A stretch of 27,270 nt of DNA. Source: a virus. Taxonomy: Duplodnaviria > Caudoviricetes. The notes beneath the pieces are model-generated. The model worked only from the letters and a program-made list of their open reading frames with translations, ran no database searches and had not been told where the DNA came from. Positions 3,572-24,681 of this stretch are shown in pieces. How positions within the stretch are numbered: the first letter of the stretch is position 1; every line of letters starts with the position of its first letter. The stretch spans positions 1 through 27,270 of the IMG/VR virus record IMGVR_UViG_3300010359_000066; one strand, given 5' to 3'. The translations under genes were made by a program, and so were the position numbers.

Positions 3572-6500
3572 ATGACGATGCTGCCGGACATCGACCAGAC
3601 GTCGTGGGACGAGTACGAGAAGCAAGAGCTTCAGCGGCAGCTTGAGCAGAAGCAGCAGGGCTTCACCCTGCAAAGCATGATCGGTGAGAAGGTCGCCGGT
3701 CTCCAGAGCCTGGTGGGCGGCGGCGCTGGTGCGGAACAACAGGCCGTCGCTCCACCACCTCCCCCCGCGCCCGAGCCGGCTCCCGAACCGTCCGTTTCCC
3801 AGGCGCCTCCCGAGCCGGCTCCGGCACCTCCCCCGCCGCCACCTCCGCCTGCACCTCCCGCGCCCGTGAACAACCAGCAGGACTGGATGGCCCAGGCGAT
3901 AAGTGCCGTGGGCCGCGCCGGGGGCGACGTGCAGCAGTTCGCGTCCAACCTGGGCAGCGGCACCGGCGACATGGTTGCTGGTGCGATCAGCGCTGCCGGC
4001 AAGGCCGGCGCGGACGTGCAGCAATTCGCAGCGAATTTACCTACCCTACCAGCGCCACCTCCGCCGCCACCGACCCCAAGGGTGCCCACGCCGTCACCAC
4101 CTCCTGTTGCACTCCAATCTGACGGCGCGGCGGGTGGTGGCAGCCTTCAGGACTACGCTCGCCAGGCCGCGCAGCGGGTCGGCATTGACCCCGACATCTT
4201 CACCCGTCAAATCCAGCAGGAGTCGGGTTTCAACCCGAACGCCAAGTCGCCGGCCGGGGCCACGGGCATCGCCCAGTTCATGCCGGGCACCGCCCAGGGC
4301 ATGGGCATCGACCCGTCCGATCCGTACGCCGCCCTGGACGCGGCGGCGAAGCTGGATCGCCAGAATCTCGAGAAGTACGGCGACTACCGCTCGGCCCTCG
4401 CGGCGTACAACGCCGGCGGCGGCAACGTGGACAAGTACGGCGGGGTGCCGCCGTTCGAAGAGACCCAGCGCTACGTCCAGAACATCCTGGGCGGCGCAGG
4501 AGGCGCCATTGGCAGCGCCGCCTCCGCCGCTGGTGGGGCGATCGGCGGGGCGGTTTCGGGCGCCGTCTCCGCCGGCCGCCAGGCCGTCACGGACATCTCC
4601 CAGTTCGGCGATAAACAGTTGAACAACGACGAGGCGTACGCCGCGTGTGGACCCGCCGCAGCGGTGCGCTTCGCTTCCATGTACGGCCGCAACCCGAGCC
4701 TGCGCGAGGCGGTGGACCTGGCCAAGCAGGTGGGCTGGACGGCCGCCAACGGCATGGCCGGTCTCGCCTCCGAGAAGAACTTGATGGACAAGCTCGGCGT
4801 CGCCACCAAGATGGTCAGCGGCGGCAACTGGGATCTGTTCGCCAAGGAGGCGCAGAGCGGCAACCCCGTCACCATCTCGACGCCTGGCCACTACTTCTTT
4901 GCCGACGGCTACGACCCGCAGAGCGGCGCGTTCCACGTCGGCCGCAGCGGCTCGGACCTGCGCCAGGGCAGCGAGTGGATGACCCCCGCACAGATGACTG
5001 CGGTGATGGGGCCAGTCCAGGGCGGCCTGCTCGCCGACAACCCGCAGGTGCCGCAGCCGTCGATCGCCGATCAGGACACCAACCCGCTCGGCTACCTGGG
5101 CCGCCTCAAGGACTCCATCACCAGTGGCATCGGCGGTGCCGCGTCCGGCGTCGGCAGCTTCATCGGCAGCAATGTGGGCCAGACCGCCAGCGACCTGGGC
5201 CTGGGAGCGCGGGGCATCGCCGACGCCCTGGGCGGCATGGCCAAGACGCAGGGCGACCAGTTCGCCTCCGACGCCGACGCCGTGCGGCGGCTCAACGACA
5301 CGATCATGGCCACCCCGCCCGGCCAGCCGCTGGAGACAGCTCTCCGGGGCATCGAGGGGCGGCTCCGCGACCTGAACCTGCCGACCACGCCGACGGACCT
5401 GTGGACCCGCGCAGAGGAACCCACGGGCGCCGTCGCCGAGGGGCCGGGCCTGGCAGCGCTCGGACGCGGGTTCAGCGCCCTGGGCACGGGCGTGAAGGCA
5501 CTCACCGACGTCACCCAGGAGATCAGCCCTGGCACCGCCCTGGGCCGCATGCAGGCGGGTGAGGAAGCGCTGCTCTGGTCCGACCCCTCGGCTCGAGCCG
5601 TGATGCTCGCCAACGGGATGTCGCCGGATATGTCGATGGGGGAGTCGGCGCGAGCGCAGATCAGCATGTCGCCGACCGATCGCGCCATCCTCGGTCAGGC
5701 CAGGGCCGACATCCGCGCCCAGGGGCCAGAGGCGGTGTCGTCGGCGGCGTTCGGCGAAGGCACCCGCCGCGAGGAGTACGAGAACCAGTACAACACGCTG
5801 CTCGGCCTGGCGTCGATGGGCATCGCCCCCGAAGGCCTGGCCAGCGGCGCCGGCCGCTTCGCTGCCAGCCTGGCGGTGGACCCTGGCAGCGCCCCCTTCG
5901 CCGCCCTGGGCGCGATCCCCGATGCGCTGCGAATAGTTCGTGGTGCTGCGCCCCAAGCGGGTGAGGCGGCGCGTCTGGTGGAGCGCGGGGCGAACTACCT
6001 GCCAGGGACGCCGGAGTTCAACTTCGAGCAGGCCGCCCAGGCCTCGCGCGATGCCGCCGCCGACGGGCTGACGCATCTCGATCTCCACAACATGCCCGGC
6101 TCGCCCTTCACCCTGACCGGCGGCAAGGGCACACTCAAGACGAACCCCGGCGGCGCCCCGACGCAGGATGCGCTGCGCGAGCTTCTCGACGCCAACCTGC
6201 ACAACAAGGACTTCTACGTGGACCAGGCCGACGACGCCGAGCGGCTGGTCGGCGACAACAAGGCGGAGTGGTTCAGCCTGAACGCGATCAACTCCCCGCT
6301 GACGAAGGTGGAGCGTCAACTGGAGGAGTCGATCAACGCGATGGGTCTGGTGCGCGAGGAGGCGGCGAAGGCTCGTGCCGCTGGGCAGGACGAGCAGCAG
6401 GCGATCCTCAACGCGGTCCGCGACAAGGACCGCCTCAGCCTTGCCAGCACGACTGCGCCGAACAAACGCGCCGATATCGAAGAGTCGTATCTGACGGGAC

Positions 6501-9500
6501 GCTCAGAGGTGACGGGGGCGCCGAAGACGTCCTCGTTCGCAGGCAACTACACCTCCGCTGGTGAGCGGGTGTTCGATCCGCGCATCACCAGCGACGTACA
6601 TAACTGGCGCCTGTTCAACGTTTCTGATGACACCAAACGGGTGGTTCGCAAAGGTAAGGAAATCATCGAACGGCCCTGGGAAAAGAACGCCGCCAATAAC
6701 GACACCGCGTACCGGTTTGTGGAGGCCTCACTCAATGACCTCGCGCGTGAGAAGGGCCTGGAGGGGCATCAGGTCCAGTCCGCCCTATGGAGCGGCATGC
6801 GCGGTCTGCAAAGCGACCCGGAGGCGTACGCCTTATGGAAGGCCGGCAAGTTCTCAGACGCCGTGCGGATGGGCCGCGAGCGGAGCCTGTTCAACCTGCC
6901 AGGCGCGGGTGAGATCGAGGTCGCCATGCAGGCGCCAGGCGTCCAGAAAGCGCTCGCGCGGTACGGCCACCTGCTGAAAGACCCGCCGCCGCTCCAGGGC
7001 TTCGGCATGACGCGGGAGTACCCCGGCTTCGGCGCTGGCAAGCCCAAGGCCCGACCGGCGCGTCCGTCAGGTGCCGCGTTCCGCACCGCCGAACGCGCTG
7101 TTGCGGAGGCCGGTGCGCCGGTCGTGCAGGGCTTGAGTGGTGACGTGGTCCGCGCCCTGGGCACCACACCCGAAGGCATCATCCCGTGGCTCGGCGCCGC
7201 GCACCGCGTGGAGGAAGTGGCGCCCGGTCAGTTCGCGATCCACCTCCCCTCCGGCAACAGTCAGACGGCGCGGTACGTCGCCTCGCTGATTGGCGACGCC
7301 ACCGGTGCTGACTCGGTGCCGATCCACATTCCGAATTTCCGCGCTCCGGACATCGGCGGTTTCAGCGTCGTGGCGGACCCGGAGGCCATCGCCGCCTTTC
7401 GCACGGAGCTTGACGCACAGGGCGTCCCGTACCTCCGTGGGACTACAGGAGCCTCCGTACAGATCCCCCTGAAAGCGGGGTTGGACGGCACCGAAGAGGG
7501 TATAGTTCAGGCGGCGCAGCGAGCCGGTTTGCCGCTGGAGTCGCTGAATCACTACGCGGGAGCAACCGTCAATGCCGTATCCGGAGAGTACACGTCAACG
7601 CTTGGCGAGCTTGGGCCTACCTTTGGACCCGCTACCGCCGAGCGATCCGATCTACAGCAACGGGCTATTAGTCGGCTTCGGGAACTCGGCGCCGGCCGAC
7701 CAGGCAGCTACGCCGGAGACACCAGCCGCATCGCCGCTCCCGACCTATCAGGCGGGGCAGTATCAGGTGCCGACCTCGGAGGGAACCTCGCCTCCGTCAT
7801 CGCTCGAGGAGCAGGCGAAGGCCTGAGATCCGACCTCGCCCGAGGTGCCATCACTGGTGGTATCTCGGGCGGGTATGCCGCCGCCCAACAGCCTGGCGCC
7901 AGCCCTGAGGACATCGCCCTCGGCGCCCTGACCGGCGCCTCCGCTGGCGCCGTACGCGGCGGCCTTACCAGCGCCATCCCGAGCCTGGACACCGCCCGTC
8001 TTGGGCACCTGGCCAACATCATCGGTCGGGACGGTCGGCAGCTTACGAACGAGGACGGCAAGCTCCTCGGCAAGCCCACGCCGCTGGACGAAAAGCTGTG
8101 GATCCCCGGTCGGCCCGAGCCTGGCGCCGACCTGGCCAAGCTGGTTAGCCCGGCCGGCAACCTGCTGAGCACCGTCGGTACCGGCACCACCGAGGCTGGC
8201 ACCGAGGCGACGGGTATCGCTCGGACCCTGCTCGGCGCGGAGCCGTGGACGTACACGCCGCCCGAGGACGTCACCAAGTCGCTGCCCAACCTGATGCACA
8301 TGGCCAACGGCATGCCCGACGTGCAGGCTTCCCTGGCACGGACGAGCGAGGAGTCGAAGGCCCTGATGCAGAAGTACCGCCAGGGCACCATCACCCACGA
8401 CGACCTGATCCAGATGGCCGCCGAGAGTGTCGGCATGACCGCTGACGACTTCCGCAAGACCGAGGTCGGCAAGGCCTTCCGTCCCGAGGAACTGCTCGCC
8501 CTGCGGGGTGCGGTGGCGAAGTCCACCGACGACTGGCTGCGCACCGCTCGCGAGATCCAACAGCAGGGCGGCGTCGAGAAGCTGAGTCCCGAGCAGAAGG
8601 TCAACGCGATGCGCCAGATGCTGGACGCGGCGCAGCTTCAGGCGGTGGGTGTCGGCGGCGCCAGCACCGCTGCGCGAACACTGAACCAGCAGCGCATCAA
8701 CGTCACCCGCATGCTGATGGAGCAGTTGACCAAGGGCACCGAACTGAAGTCCGCCACTGCGGCGCTCACCGAGGCTCGGGCACGTGAAGCCTGGGCCAGC
8801 GCCAAGTTGGGCATCAAGCCGCGCCAGGGCCTCGAGGCGCGGGTCGGTCCGTCGCCGGCGGGGGATGCGATCCGTGGCCAGGCCAAGACCGCCGCCGAGG
8901 CGTACCAGGCGCGGCTGGACGCCGCCAGGGCTGACCTTCGCGCCCAGGGCCGCTACGACGAGAAGAACTGGAACGCTCGCCTGGCGGAACTGGAAGACAA
9001 GGCGAACATCTCTCGAGACGCCGGGATGAAGCAGGCGGTCCAGGCCGAACGCGCCAGGGTGAACGGCAGCTACGACAACTACATCGACGCCGTGAAGGCC
9101 GAGCTTCAGGCGCAGGACAACTTCGACCAGAAGACCTGGGACGCAACGCTGGCCAAGCTGGACAAGCAACACCAGAGCATGCAGGAACGCGGGTCGATGT
9201 GGAACCGCCGCGACGTCACCACGCCCGAGGGGCAGACGGCCTGGTTGCAGGGCATGGCGAACAACGCTCGCGAGGACGCCAAGGCGGAGAACAATCGCGC
9301 CATCGCCGCCTGGAACCGCCAGCTACGCGACGCCGAGACGCAGCGGAACATCGCCAACCGCATCCTCGGCCGTCTTGGTGGCGAGAAGGTCACCGACGAG
9401 ATGCTCAAGGGCATGATCGAGGCGATGGGCAGCGGCGACACGATGCAGATGGCCAAGTACCTCCAGGGTCTCAAGAAGGTCGGCTGGTGGGACCGCATCG

Positions 9501-11284
9501 GCACCCTGCGCTACGCCAGCATGCTCTCCGGCCTGGCGACGCACGAGGCGCAGCTTCTCGGCAACACGGTGATGGGTGGCCTCGCCATGGGTGCCCACCC
9601 GCTCGCCGTCGGTGCCGACATCGCCAGGTACGGCGTCGGCCGCGCCCTGGGCCAGGACGTGGAGCGCCAGCGCTACATGTCCGAACTGCCGGCGATGATG
9701 CGCGGCATGAAGGGCGGCTGGCACTCGGGCCGCGAGGACGCGCTGTCGATCCTCAAGACCGGCATCAACCCCGCCGAGGCGTCGCGGAACTGGGAGGCCC
9801 TGGGCAGCCCTGGCTTCGCGATCGAGCAGACTGCCCTGGGCAAGGCGCTCGGAGATACGGGCAGCAAGGCTGTGAACGCTGCCGTTGAGGGTCCGCTCCG
9901 CGCCCTGGGCGCAGGCGATGCCCTGATCCGAGGCACGATGCGCGGCGCGTTCGCCTACCAGCTTGCCGAGCGCCAGGCGATCCGCGAAGGCTTCGCCGCA
10001 GGCTCCAGGCGCAACGATCGCGTAGAGGAGATCGTGCGCAACCTGCACGAGTTCCCCGAGCTTGTCCAGCAGGCCGACAACATGGCCAAGCGGGTGGTGC
10101 TGCAAGAGGGACGTGGCGAGATCTCGCCGCTGGCGCAGATCCGCAGCAAAGGCATCGCTGGCAACGCCTTCTCTCTGATCGCGCCGTTTGTGCGGACCCC
10201 GTACAACATCGCCGCCCAGGGCGCCGGCTTGACGCCACTCGGCTATGCGGGTGCGCTGACTGCCCTGGCGAAGGGCGACACGGGTGAGTTCGCCGATCGC
10301 GCCGCCAGGGCCACACTCGGCACAGGCATCCTGGGCGGCGCGTACGCCCTGGCCAAGAACGACCACCTGACGGGGGCGATGCCGACCGATCCGAGCGAGC
10401 GCTCCACACTGCCGCCCGGCTGGCAGCCGTACGCCCTCAAGCTGAACCTGCCCGGCCAGGATCAGCCAACGTACGTCAAGTACTCGAACCTGGCTGGTCC
10501 GATCGGGGTGCCGCTGGCGCTGGCGTCGGCGATGGTGGACGCCGAGAGGGACAACCGCTACGTGGAGCCAGGCAACGTCGTGCAGCGCATGTCGAACTAC
10601 ACCGGGCGGATGGCCGGCAGCTTCGGCAAGTACATGCTCGATCAGACGATGATGCAGGGCCTGGGCGCGGTGTATGACGCCGTCAACGAACCCGAGCGGA
10701 AGGGCGAGAACTTCCTCGAGTCGATGGCTGGTCAGTTCGCCCCGTACGCGGCGATGACCCGCTCACTCGATCGCGCCCTGGGCACCGGTCCTCGCGACCC
10801 GCACGGCATCCTTGACGCCCTGGAAGCGGCGTACCCAGGCCTGAGCGGCCTGGTGCAGCCCCGTCGCGACGCCCTCGGCCGCGAGGTGCGCGAGACGCAG
10901 ACCGGCCTGCCAGCGATCATCTCGCCGGCGCGGTACGGCATCGAGCAGGACGACCCGACCCTCCGCGCCCTGGCGGCGGCGGACCAGGGCATCGGCGCCG
11001 CGCCGACGTCGATGCGCGGTTTCGACCTGACGCCCGAGGAGCGGCAACGGGTCTTCCCCGCCCAGGCCGGCTACTACATCCAGCAGGCGGTGCAGGACAT
11101 GGCCTCGCGCCCTGACTACCAGGCCAGGGACCGCGATACGCAGCAGACAATCATGGCACGGGTGATTGAGCAGGCTCGTGCCCAGGCGTTCGCCGACCTG
11201 TACAACTCGTGGTCACCCGAGGAACGCCTGCGGCGCCAGGAGATGAACCGTCAACGCACCGCCGCCGAGGCGCGGCCCTACTAG
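3572..11284 (+). CDS. 2570-aa polyvalent internal virion/ejection protein: SLT lytic transglycosylase (~4145-4490), C39-like Cys peptidase (~4590-5040), HhH-GPD glycosylase-like domain (~6200-6830), coiled coil, conserved C-terminal region
   Basis: SLT motifs QQESGFNP, GIAQFMP, AAYNAG, ETQRYV; peptidase motifs SQF...ACGPAA...GHYF; APKTSSF..ITSDVH..QSALW; C-terminal PFVRTPYNI / GWQPY / RRDALG motifs as seen in large podovirus internal proteins. Confidence 0.8.
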   Translation: MTMLPDIDQTSWDEYEKQELQRQLEQKQQGFTLQSMIGEKVAGLQSLVGGGAGAEQQAVAPPPPPAPEPAPEPSVSQAPPEPAPAPPPPPPPPAPPAPVNNQQDWMAQAISAVGRAGGDVQQFASNLGSGTGDMVAGAISAAGKAGADVQQFAANLPTLPAPPPPPPTPRVPTPSPPPVALQSDGAAGGGSLQDYARQAAQRVGIDPDIFTRQIQQESGFNPNAKSPAGATGIAQFMPGTAQGMGIDPSDPYAALDAAAKLDRQNLEKYGDYRSALAAYNAGGGNVDKYGGVPPFEETQRYVQNILGGAGGAIGSAASAAGGAIGGAVSGAVSAGRQAVTDISQFGDKQLNNDEAYAACGPAAAVRFASMYGRNPSLREAVDLAKQVGWTAANGMAGLASEKNLMDKLGVATKMVSGGNWDLFAKEAQSGNPVTISTPGHYFFADGYDPQSGAFHVGRSGSDLRQGSEWMTPAQMTAVMGPVQGGLLADNPQVPQPSIADQDTNPLGYLGRLKDSITSGIGGAASGVGSFIGSNVGQTASDLGLGARGIADALGGMAKTQGDQFASDADAVRRLNDTIMATPPGQPLETALRGIEGRLRDLNLPTTPTDLWTRAEEPTGAVAEGPGLAALGRGFSALGTGVKALTDVTQEISPGTALGRMQAGEEALLWSDPSARAVMLANGMSPDMSMGESARAQISMSPTDRAILGQARADIRAQGPEAVSSAAFGEGTRREEYENQYNTLLGLASMGIAPEGLASGAGRFAASLAVDPGSAPFAALGAIPDALRIVRGAAPQAGEAARLVERGANYLPGTPEFNFEQAAQASRDAAADGLTHLDLHNMPGSPFTLTGGKGTLKTNPGGAPTQDALRELLDANLHNKDFYVDQADDAERLVGDNKAEWFSLNAINSPLTKVERQLEESINAMGLVREEAAKARAAGQDEQQAILNAVRDKDRLSLASTTAPNKRADIEESYLTGRSEVTGAPKTSSFAGNYTSAGERVFDPRITSDVHNWRLFNVSDDTKRVVRKGKEIIERPWEKNAANNDTAYRFVEASLNDLAREKGLEGHQVQSALWSGMRGLQSDPEAYALWKAGKFSDAVRMGRERSLFNLPGAGEIEVAMQAPGVQKALARYGHLLKDPPPLQGFGMTREYPGFGAGKPKARPARPSGAAFRTAERAVAEAGAPVVQGLSGDVVRALGTTPEGIIPWLGAAHRVEEVAPGQFAIHLPSGNSQTARYVASLIGDATGADSVPIHIPNFRAPDIGGFSVVADPEAIAAFRTELDAQGVPYLRGTTGASVQIPLKAGLDGTEEGIVQAAQRAGLPLESLNHYAGATVNAVSGEYTSTLGELGPTFGPATAERSDLQQRAISRLRELGAGRPGSYAGDTSRIAAPDLSGGAVSGADLGGNLASVIARGAGEGLRSDLARGAITGGISGGYAAAQQPGASPEDIALGALTGASAGAVRGGLTSAIPSLDTARLGHLANIIGRDGRQLTNEDGKLLGKPTPLDEKLWIPGRPEPGADLAKLVSPAGNLLSTVGTGTTEAGTEATGIARTLLGAEPWTYTPPEDVTKSLPNLMHMANGMPDVQASLARTSEESKALMQKYRQGTITHDDLIQMAAESVGMTADDFRKTEVGKAFRPEELLALRGAVAKSTDDWLRTAREIQQQGGVEKLSPEQKVNAMRQMLDAAQLQAVGVGGASTAARTLNQQRINVTRMLMEQLTKGTELKSATAALTEARAREAWASAKLGIKPRQGLEARVGPSPAGDAIRGQAKTAAEAYQARLDAARADLRAQGRYDEKNWNARLAELEDKANISRDAGMKQAVQAERARVNGSYDNYIDAVKAELQAQDNFDQKTWDATLAKLDKQHQSMQERGSMWNRRDVTTPEGQTAWLQGMANNAREDAKAENNRAIAAWNRQLRDAETQRNIANRILGRLGGEKVTDEMLKGMIEAMGSGDTMQMAKYLQGLKKVGWWDRIGTLRYASMLSGLATHEAQLLGNTVMGGLAMGAHPLAVGADIARYGVGRALGQDVERQRYMSELPAMMRGMKGGWHSGREDALSILKTGINPAEASRNWEALGSPGFAIEQTALGKALGDTGSKAVNAAVEGPLRALGAGDALIRGTMRGAFAYQLAERQAIREGFAAGSRRNDRVEEIVRNLHEFPELVQQADNMAKRVVLQEGRGEISPLAQIRSKGIAGNAFSLIAPFVRTPYNIAAQGAGLTPLGYAGALTALAKGDTGEFADRAARATLGTGILGGAYALAKNDHLTGAMPTDPSERSTLPPGWQPYALKLNLPGQDQPTYVKYSNLAGPIGVPLALASAMVDAERDNRYVEPGNVVQRMSNYTGRMAGSFGKYMLDQTMMQGLGAVYDAVNEPERKGENFLESMAGQFAPYAAMTRSLDRALGTGPRDPHGILDALEAAYPGLSGLVQPRRDALGREVRETQTGLPAIISPARYGIEQDDPTLRALAAADQGIGAAPTSMRGFDLTPEERQRVFPAQAGYYIQQAVQDMASRPDYQARDRDTQQTIMARVIEQARAQAFADLYNSWSPEERLRRQEMNRQRTAAEARPY
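3893..4040 (+). repeat. Internal protein duplication AISAVGRAGGDVQQFASNL / AISAAGKAGADVQQFAANL
   Basis: Two near-identical 19-aa units in the N-terminus of the giant protein. Confidence 0.8.
4023..4037. promoter_or_regulatory. Perfect palindrome AATTCGC-A-GCGAATT, operator-like, inside CDS
   Basis: 7-bp perfect inverted repeat built from rare codons (CAA TTC GCA GCG AAT TTA), whereas the sister protein repeat uses common codons. Confidence 0.4.
7572..7826 (+). CDS. Overprinted +1-frame gene (84 aa) inside the giant protein gene
   Basis: GGGAG RBS at 7558-7562, 9 nt before ATG. Host-frame A/T-ending codons rise to about 35/85 here versus 5/60 at 8342-8521 (hand counts). TATAGT -10-like hexamer at 7501-7506. 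Confidence 0.6.
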   Translation: MPYPESTRQRLASLGLPLDPLPPSDPIYSNGLLVGFGNSAPADQAATPETPAASPLPTYQAGQYQVPTSEGTSPPSSLEEQAKA

Positions 11285-13863: not shown

Positions 13864-14871
13864 GTGCCGTACAACTCGATCGCCACCCGCGCCACACCTG
13901 GCAGCGGTCCGCTTATCCCCGAGGACGTTCAGCGGGACATCGTCCAGTCCATCGAACAGAAGAGCGCGGCACTCCAACTCATGCCGCACGTCCGGATGAA
14001 GAGGGCGCAGCAGCGCATCCCGGTGATGTCGCAGCTACCCGTGGCGTACTGGATCACCGGCGCCTCCCTGGACGCTCGAGACATCGGCATGAAGCAGACG
14101 ACCACCCTCGCCTGGGACAACGTCTACCTCAACGCCGAAGAGATGGCCGTGATCGTGCCGATCGCCAAGAACCTGCTTGACGACATGGACTACGACTTTT
14201 GGGCACAGGTGAAGCCCAAGGTCACCGAGGCCTTCGGCGTCGCCCTGGACGAGGCGATCTTCTTTGGCGTGAACGCGCCAACCACCTTCCCGCCGGCGAT
14301 CGTCACGGGCGCCAACAGCGCTGGCAACCTCGTGGTCGCTGGTACCTCCACGGTGGACTACGTCGATGACGTCAACAATGCGATGGGGCTGGTTGAGGCG
14401 GACGGTTTCGACGTCACCGGCTTTTGGGCACGGCGCCAGGTCAAGGCCAAGCTGCGCGGCTTGCGCGACACCACCAAGGGGCTGCTGTTCAACCCGGACG
14501 CGCCGCTCAGCGCGTCGATCAACACCGGCTCGCTCTACGGTGAGACGATCGTGTTTTCGAACGCTGGTCTGTCAGGCTTCGCCACGGGCGCCGCGTTCTA
14601 CTCCATGATCATGGGCCAGTGGGACCAGTCGATGCTGGCAGTCCGCGACGACATCTCGATGGAGATGTTCGACACGGGCGTCATCACCGACAACGGCTCG
14701 CCCCCGGTGATCCAATACAACCTGATGCAACAGGACATGGTCGCGTTGCGTGTGACGGCGCGGTTCGCCTGGGCGATCCCCAACCCGATCAACCGCCAAC
14801 AGCAGACCAAAGCTTCGCGGTACCCGTTTGCGGTCGTGCAGCAGAAGGCCAGCACCGGCGGCGAGGGTTAG
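13864..14871 (+). CDS. Major capsid protein (HK97 fold)
   Basis: 335 aa; motifs LIPEDVQRDI, AYWI.G, EEMAVIVPI, FGVALDEAIFFG, GQWDQ, NLMQQDMVALRVTARFAW typical of phage capsid family proteins; GAGGGAG RBS before GTG. Confidence 0.92.
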   Translation: MPYNSIATRATPGSGPLIPEDVQRDIVQSIEQKSAALQLMPHVRMKRAQQRIPVMSQLPVAYWITGASLDARDIGMKQTTTLAWDNVYLNAEEMAVIVPIAKNLLDDMDYDFWAQVKPKVTEAFGVALDEAIFFGVNAPTTFPPAIVTGANSAGNLVVAGTSTVDYVDDVNNAMGLVEADGFDVTGFWARRQVKAKLRGLRDTTKGLLFNPDAPLSASINTGSLYGETIVFSNAGLSGFATGAAFYSMIMGQWDQSMLAVRDDISMEMFDTGVITDNGSPPVIQYNLMQQDMVALRVTARFAWAIPNPINRQQQTKASRYPFAVVQQKASTGGEG

Positions 14872-23747: not shown

Positions 23748-23894
23748 ATGCAGATTGCTATGCCCACCATCACCGTCGGCTGGGTGATCGCGCTACTGGT
23801 GTTGATCCTGGCGATTGTGCTGATCGTCGTCAGTCAGGTGCCGCTCATCATCGGCCTGCTGATCGCGGGTGTCGCCCTGTCGCGGCTGCTCTAG
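23748..23894 (+). CDS. Second small membrane protein (48 aa, MQIAMPTITVGWVIALLVLILAIVL...), holin-like; absent from the ORF track
   Basis: GGAGGG RBS 7 nt upstream; two hydrophobic helices. Confidence 0.7.
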   Translation: MQIAMPTITVGWVIALLVLILAIVLIVVSQVPLIIGLLIAGVALSRLL

Positions 23895-24200
23895 CGCTTC
23901 TCGGGCGATGCCTATCATCGGTGTCTGGCCGTGCGCGATCTTCACTAGGGCTATTCGCAGACGTGCGACTTCAGCCCACGTGTCGGCCAGCTTCTGCTGC
24001 CATTGATCGTTCTCGGCTTCGGACTCGATCAGACGGGTGCGGAGCATGTCGATCTCTCGCTCGTAGATGGTCGCCACGCTGTTGGCCTGGGCGCGGAGTT
24101 CGTCACGCTCGCGTTCGACCTTCCGAATCGGATTGCGAGAGCAATCAGGATCGTGACCGGCGCGAGCATCCCACTCGCACTCAGCGCATTCGATGCTCAT
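23793..24200 (-). CDS. Hypothetical protein with C..C..H..C motif and coiled coil
   Basis: CAEC...GHDPDC, then ERERDELRA...EVARLR...AREAL, a pattern common in small phage early proteins. Confidence 0.65.
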   Translation of the reverse strand: MSIECAECEWDARAGHDPDCSRNPIRKVERERDELRAQANSVATIYEREIDMLRTRLIESEAENDQWQQKLADTWAEVARLRIALVKIAHGQTPMIGIAREALEQPRQGDTRDQQADDERHLTDDDQHNRQDQHQ

Positions 24201-24212
24201 GGTTTGGTAGAC

Positions 24213-24503
24213 CTAGCCATCTTTAGGGCTACCAAGCGGCGAGCGGACCCCCTCGTGGGTCATGCTGACCAGATCGAGAGGGCCGACGCCGTAGCTGACC
24301 GTGCCGTTGATGGCGCGGATTGTCAGGATGCCATCGCCGTAGCTCACGTCCGGGTGGTCGATGTTTTCCAGTAATGCGTCGGCGATACGGATTCGCTCGT
24401 CGGCTCGAAGGACCCGCAAAGAACCGTGGGGTTTGTCCAAGTCCAGCCGCATCGTTTCGATGACGCACTCTCCCGTCGGCGGCTTGTTAGATCTAAGCCC
24501 CAT
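24213..24503 (-). CDS. Hypothetical protein (start uncertain)
   Basis: Protein-like beta-rich sequence (GDGILTIRAINGTVSY); tiles between neighbours. Confidence 0.55.
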   Translation of the reverse strand: MGLRSNKPPTGECVIETMRLDLDKPHGSLRVLRADERIRIADALLENIDHPDVSYGDGILTIRAINGTVSYGVGPLDLVSMTHEGVRSPLGSPKDG

Positions 24504-24681
24504 GAGAGCTACCAAGTGGCTTGCGGCGTGGACATGGCTGCCAGGAAGCAGCGCTTCCAAGTTGTACGCCACACTTGATGCACACTGAATCCCAGCGTGG
24601 TGGCTGATCGGGGTTGTCGGGATTGCCCTGCCAGATATGGGCGGGGCGCCGCGAGATTCGCTTGGTCACTCTAGGCCCCAT
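24493..24681 (-). CDS. Small Zn-ribbon-like protein (62 aa)
   Basis: HIW...CIKCG...PCP; GAGG RBS. Confidence 0.55.
   Translation of the reverse strand: MGPRVTKRISRRPAHIWQGNPDNPDQPPRWDSVCIKCGVQLGSAASWQPCPRRKPLGSSHGA

Follow-up and report, generated by a model that had tools for sequence, protein, structure and literature searches.

An out-of-frame gene nested behind a glycosylase-like module of a giant phage protein: a conserved peptide predicted to bind the module and candidate for its inhibitor

Polyvalent phage proteins are read as single open reading frames (ORFs). The locus described here raises the question of whether the linker behind an internal module of such a protein also encodes, in a shifted frame, a small partner of that module; if linkers hide partners, current annotation overlooks a class of regulators. 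The locus lies on a virus record of 27,270 bases, and "the window" below means that whole stretch. An earlier note on this DNA had proposed an overprinted immunity gene. We find a conserved nested gene in the linker behind a two-domain module (D1 and D2), with a product predicted to bind D2. The full proposal, in which this product likely acts as the module's cognate inhibitor, stands at about an even chance.

The giant protein and its internal module

The host gene (positions 3572..11284, plus strand) encodes a 2570-residue giant phage protein of the polyvalent or internal-virion type, and sits in a co-oriented block of virion genes, among them genes for a major capsid protein (13864-14871) and a collagen tail fibre. 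Pfam places an SLT transglycosylase domain at residues 195-292, and a weak C39-like peptidase domain covers residues 352-455. The D1-D2 module occupies residues 863-1345 and is thus internal, with a long helical part C-terminal to it. The protein therefore joins disparate conflict-related domains (SLT, C39-like, D1 and D2) in one large chain, as polyvalent proteins do. Homologues that share D1-D2 also bear LPD38, ART-PolyVal-like or ddrB-ParB domains; the giant protein of the window itself had no LPD match in Pfam. Its PHROG matches include an internal virion protein with an endolysin domain. Together with the SLT domain and the virion gene block, these matches suggest that virions package and inject the giant protein.

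D1 (6158..6859, plus strand) resembles HhH-GPD DNA glycosylases and is related to DUF7178. It keeps the K-T (residues 985-986), T-x-D (residues 1006-1008) and Q-x-x-x-W motifs, and K133, T134, D156, Q217 and W221 are invariant in 14 loci. An AlphaFold2 model was made of residues 802-1376 from 6 sequences (mean pLDDT 66). The best fold match of D1 (VIA) was 1kea (Z 6.6, rmsd 4.4, 184 aligned); ROS1, OGG, EndoIII, AlkA and phage PUGT came next, and the best matches include a phage base-modifying transferase, 8z2m. The top matches were all HhH-GPD proteins; their Z scores of 5-6.6 lie below the level at which the tool is reliable, and the family is consistent among them. A distant homologue (L038) passes the DUF7178 model (PF23802) with 47.7 bits against a cut-off of 27; the window's own D1 has no Pfam match. 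On the model, we regard D1 as a putative HhH-GPD glycosylase-like domain.

D2 (7082..7606, plus strand) is an alpha/beta domain with ferredoxin-like units, and its fold matches were generic ferredoxin-like ones only. It is tied to D1: all 23 of the D2-aligning homologues longer than 900 residues match D1 upstream (P0019 was left out as spurious). The BFVD matches of the module were large uncharacterised or polyvalent phage proteins, and Foldseek against the PDB returned nothing at E ≤0.001 for either model. The idea that D2 is SAM-lyase-like was not adopted, as it had a single tied match (9gab, Z 5.8, rank 28) and no sequence match.

A conserved gene in the +1 frame

The nested ORF runs from 7572 to 7826 on the plus strand, wholly inside the host ORF, and encodes 84 residues. 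An SD-like GGGAG (7558..7562) precedes its ATG by 9 nt, and homologues have SD-like sites at the same place. The frame, start signal and length given in the earlier note were all recovered. The product begins with a helical segment, followed by a conserved LPPxDPIYxxG core (encoded at about 7632-7664) and a low-complexity, unconserved tail that is probably dispensable past about residue 40. No signal peptide or lipobox was evident by eye, and searches of Pfam, PHROGs, proteins and the Atlas returned no match for the peptide. Gene finders miss the gene.

Base composition is a weaker guide than it had seemed. Across the nested span, 36 of 86 host codons (42%) end in A or T, so that the earlier figure of about 41% holds on recount. 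The GC3 of 0.85 across the whole host gene falls to 0.55-0.68 in a Pro-rich N-terminal linker (about 3750-4100) as well, and a dip in host GC3 is therefore not decisive alone. Likewise, the GC3 of about 75% claimed for the nested frame was reproduced (0.75) and is no evidence when taken alone, since the third position of the nested codons coincides with the first position of the host codons, where GC is high gene-wide (0.73 over the span and similar elsewhere). The longest +1-frame ORF within D1 (6561-6977) has a mild host GC3 dip at 6570-6750; as a second nested gene, this ORF (start at 6561 or 6735, end at 6977) was rejected, being an Arg/Cys-rich shadow sequence with a host GC3 of 0.85.

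The decisive evidence for a gene with its own start signal, as the earlier note had proposed, is conservation among homologues. Host-frame queries gave nine loci in the clade of the window (L002, L003, L004, L005, L008, L016, L017, L021 and L031), not counting the window's own contig (L001) and two duplicates (L006 and L007); L002 and L004 are 93% identical. Chance rows were dropped from the pattern scans: 5 of 8 in the scan that gave L016, L017 and L021, while the 10 rows of the scan that gave L031 comprised 6 contigs already counted, 3 unrelated ones and 1 new one. In all nine host-found loci, a +1 ORF with the motif P-P-x-[DHSE]-[PE]-[IVLA]-Y-x-x-G was present at the same place, so the predicted P.DPI[YF]..G motif is indeed conserved. 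The cores read LPPNDPIYSSG, LPPDDPIYSSG, LPPDDPIYSDG, LPPNDPLYSSG, APPNSPAYKLG, APPEHPVYREG, LDPSDPIYSKG and LPPDDEVYSSG. The locus L031 lay outside the training alignment and was the sole non-training match in one search with the peptide profile.

A start codon stands 16-29 codons ahead of the core in each of the nine. Five loci (L003, L005, L008, L021 and L031) have an ATG with an SD-like site, an arrangement that precedes 0-1.7% of positions elsewhere in these genes; in the other four the start is weak, being a GTG 4 nt after GGAGG in L002 and L004, and an ATG without a good SD in L016 and L017. L002 and L004 have ACG in place of the ATG of their relatives, with the nested core intact. In L002, L004 and L008 the N-terminal helix is swapped for a Pro-rich stretch, again with an intact core, which possibly represents decay or a shortened functional unit.

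The three frames were compared over a 13-codon core in 14 loci, a stretch picked on the motif, with 3 of the 14 loci found by motif. Identity was 0.50 and mean BLOSUM 2.80 in the nested frame, compared to 0.32 and 0.89 in the host frame and 0.37 and 1.15 in the third frame. Synonymous and non-synonymous pair differences numbered 272 and 590, respectively, in the nested frame, and 89 and 801 in the host frame. The host codons CGA TCC GAT CTA were kept in the window and in all four loci tested (L002-L005), an outcome expected by chance at about 1e-4 each from the codon use of each gene, and in L008 a host D-to-A change corresponds to a nested I-to-L change. At the protein level, the back-translated nested signature occurred at the aligned site in 20 of 25 homologous proteins, with 0.37 expected (P0013 and P0027, which carry frameshifts or truncations, were excluded, and P0019 was dropped as spurious). 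The ORF thus lies wholly inside another on the same strand, in a shifted frame, with conservation at the protein level, as embedded overlapping genes do. From these sequence comparisons, it is almost certainly a real gene.

The nested gene probably has its own promoter as well. A candidate -10 element, TATAGT (7501..7506, plus strand), aligns with TATAAT in L003 and TATACT in L005. It takes up one of the three ATA codons of the host gene, and is one of only two TAnnnT hexamers on the plus strand of the 27 kb window that match TATAAT in at least 5 of 6 positions; the minus strand has none. Of 10 loci in the window clade, 7 have a near-consensus -10 hexamer no more than 130 nt upstream, compared to 1 such hexamer in about 59 kb of background (the rest of the host ORFs of these loci). 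Distances elsewhere were 109 nt in L008, 36 nt in L021, 13 nt in L031 and 26 nt in L040; in the distant clade described below, none of 4 loci tested had the hexamer. The -10 element of the earlier note therefore stood, recurring as it does upstream in relatives. Its -35 did not: TTGGAC is present 14 nt upstream of TATAGT, and no -35 match was found upstream of the nested gene, nor did a sigma-70 promoter scan of 7000-8000 return any site. Considering sequence evidence only, an internal promoter is likely in the window clade. In L031, one candidate ATG follows the end of a perfect TATAAT by 7 nt, the spacing that a leaderless transcript would be expected to have. Elsewhere in the window, two small minus-strand ORFs (23793-24572) lie near the second -10-like hexamer (23913, plus strand), where the direction of transcription likely switches.

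The family extends beyond this clade. A blind scan of viral contigs with the back-translated motif gave 11 stretches, of which 4 (L038, L039, L040 and L041, the last being the contig of L003) lay in the +1 frame directly behind a D1-D2-type module; the other 7 were judged chance rows. L038 and L039 are members of a distant clade, whose host motif DW[KS][DK]NPNGE doubles as the SD-like site and start codon (ATG) for a short peptide, MAK...LPPDHPIF.EGP. In a D2 scan of this clade, all 7 loci had a nested ORF of the form MAK..[DH]P[IW]F; 2 of these were the seeds, 4 are 96-99% alike, and one scan pattern spanned the SD and start region itself. If linkers do hide partners, then "motifs" of the host frame, RSDL and W..NPNGE for example, partly reflect the core, SD and start codon of a second gene. 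D1 is alignable across the two clades, and a profile comparison of their D2 domains gave no significant homology (probability 0.5%, E 0.13). Additional SD+ATG +1-frame ORFs with low host GC3 were seen in giant genes of the distant clade (L129:560-733, L130:623-796, and L134:476-583, 1013-1138 and 1844-1966); these are possible further nested genes.

Outside the giant gene, 3 of 85 rows from a motif scan of genome contigs look like family members (L062, L112 and L085), and the other 82 were dropped as chance. The three sit in bacterial metagenome-assembled genomes (MAGs), incomplete genomes that gave no DUF7178 match over the cut-off and no D1-D2 match. L062 and L085 share 45% identity over 60 residues (E 6e-10). 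The L062 peptide has an SD and ATG and is the first of several small ORFs. This run, at L062:2426-3633, comprises 4-5 small ORFs with the free-standing gene at its head; several have SD-like sites, and the contig is not prophage-like. Captured genes for small inhibitors may be arrayed here; the small ORFs beside L062, one at about 3449 apart, gave nothing convincing against homologous loci or phages. At L085:2135-2734 (minus strand), a DUF4160 toxin-like ORF adjoining DUF2442 is split by an insert of about 115 codons, the +1 frame of which encodes a member of the peptide family and which bears a weak likeness to the end of D2 (E 0.02-0.04). The motif also opens a separately called 99-residue protein, P0032 (E 0.12), found in a profile alignment search that took in proteins of 82-2000 residues. 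Peptide-profile scores are inflated on motif-selected rows, as a probable antisense chance row (L087) gets 24 bits. A single-sequence scan with D1-D2 found no relatives in viral or genome contigs. tblastn of a phage collection gave no match for the D1-D2 of the window, the L017 peptide or the L038 D1-D2, and tblastn of plasmids gave none for the L038 D1-D2; there is therefore no annotated isolate at hand.

Predicted binding and role of the peptide

The earlier note had suggested co-folding the peptide with the upstream domains. D1+D2 (505 residues, 14 alignment rows) co-folded with peptide residues 1-42 (17 rows) scored 0.64 (runs 0.64, 0.52 and 0.66), compared to 0.00 for the best of three controls. 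Among solved complexes, 116 of 157 reach the pass mark, as do 2 of 215 mismatched pairs; with one's own alignments these counts are approximate, and by the method's own account 7 of 44 neighbour pairs chosen blindly also passed. The runs share at least 61% of contacts, and the partner pLDDT is at least 64. In the models, peptide residues 1-28 lie on host residues 1177-1181, 1254-1265, 1303-1312 and 1322-1329, all in D2, with T7, L11, L14 and L16 of the peptide facing I1261, L1304, V1312, L1322, L1325 and H1327. The proposed co-fold thus passed, as a prediction that supports binding, and the predicted interface touches neither the glycosylase-like D1 nor its active site. The dual-coded host residues (chain positions 482-505) lie outside the interface, which is therefore not a trivial effect of shared codons. 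The helix that gives the best-resolved contacts is Pro-rich in L002, L004 and L008, and missing from the short peptides of the distant clade; consequently, the interface is not universal, and only the LPPxDPIY contacts can be general. Based on these models, it is reasonably probable that the nested peptide binds D2.

How these observations might fit together is as follows. A transcript driven by the internal -10 would start near 7513, so that the peptide could be made apart from the late structural operon. Its first 28 residues (the helix and LPPxDPIY) are predicted to dock on the second ferredoxin-like unit of D2. The giant protein would be packaged and injected, with D1 presumably acting on DNA bases, and the peptide might hold the module off in the producing cell or switch it off after entry. 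The inhibitory role, taken by itself, falls slightly short of an even chance.

Other explanations of the locus have to be weighed against this one. It is very improbable that no second protein is made and that a conserved host-frame motif (RSDL), or a signal in the DNA or RNA, has left the +1 ORF as a by-product. The core DNA is near-identical within the close clade, as such an explanation would have it, and chance +1 ORFs with an SD and ATG do occur in these genes, for instance at 6735-6977 of the window; however, chance ORFs retain the host GC3 of 0.85. Moreover, the host residues vary in distant loci (RSDL, QPGV, APGV, GPSY and RPMV) while the nested ones stay similar, a start codon is found ahead of the core in every locus, and the RNA of 7510-7700 shows no unusual folding (z -1.13).

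If the gene is real and its product binds D2, the peptide could still be a chaperone, an activator or a packaging or ejection adaptor of the giant protein, consistent with a predicted site away from the putative catalytic residues of D1 and with a gene that can also be read from the late operon transcript. We consider this rather unlikely: the separate -10 suggests uncoupled expression, for which a stoichiometric assembly factor has no need, and free-standing copies occur in three bacterial MAGs (incomplete genomes) without a D1 or D2 match. Those same free-standing relatives (L062, L085 and L112), the 99-residue P0032 and the gene's own start signals would suit an independent early effector that hits a host target, for which the linker is merely a permissive site. 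That, too, is unlikely, as all phage loci examined have the gene at a single site immediately after D2, even where the other domains differ, and the co-fold passes with D2 and gives 0.00 with an unrelated protein.

Returning to an inhibitor of the module, a broader and more tentative generalisation, on the doubtful side, is that giant injected proteins bear effector-plus-antidote cassettes, in which the inhibitor is overprinted with its own promoter behind the module, and that bacteria capture free-standing copies (L062, L112 and L085) to neutralise the injected enzyme. With D2 as a specific predicted target and a peptide some 30 residues long, the effector-inhibitor question becomes testable; such a test would open a first way into the DUF7178-like module, so far uncharacterised.

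Comparison with known systems

In phage lambda, Rz1 is a same-strand, +1-frame gene fully inside Rz, and its product, a lipoprotein of the lysis system, binds the Rz product. The nested gene described here is likewise embedded in a phage gene on the same strand and in the +1 frame, with a binding partner that in this case is predicted. In contrast to Rz1, the peptide has no evident lipobox or signal peptide, and its gene sits in the linker of a 2570-residue protein.

The giant protein resembles the phage-type polyvalent proteins described by Iyer et al. 2017 (PMC5512222) in being a giant multi-domain protein with a lysozyme-type domain. The main text of that paper describes no nested partner genes: "glycosylase" and "overlap" occur 0 times in it, and "nested" occurs twice, both times for a hairpin structure. 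In the literature searched, mainly the main texts of openly accessible papers, no account of nested genes within polyvalent phage proteins was found.

The comparison with MuF polymorphic toxins made in the earlier note survives as an analogy only, since a MuF domain was not found in the giant protein (P0001), either among its Pfam matches (E up to 0.1) or among its PHROG matches. Jamet et al. 2017 (PMC5576092) report a small ORF after 89.4% of 191 MuF toxin genes. As in those systems, a small ORF here comes after the putative enzymatic domain of a phage protein that is probably virion-associated; here, however, the module lies within the chain, and the small gene is contained wholly in the host ORF in a shifted frame instead of following its stop codon. 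In Rhs elements, as summarised in PMC7043789, an internal promoter drives a toxin plus its antitoxin. Those elements resemble the model proposed here in having a promoter inside a giant toxin-delivery ORF and a toxin-antitoxin logic, and differ from the present locus in being bacterial, whereas the product in the window is an out-of-frame, embedded peptide.
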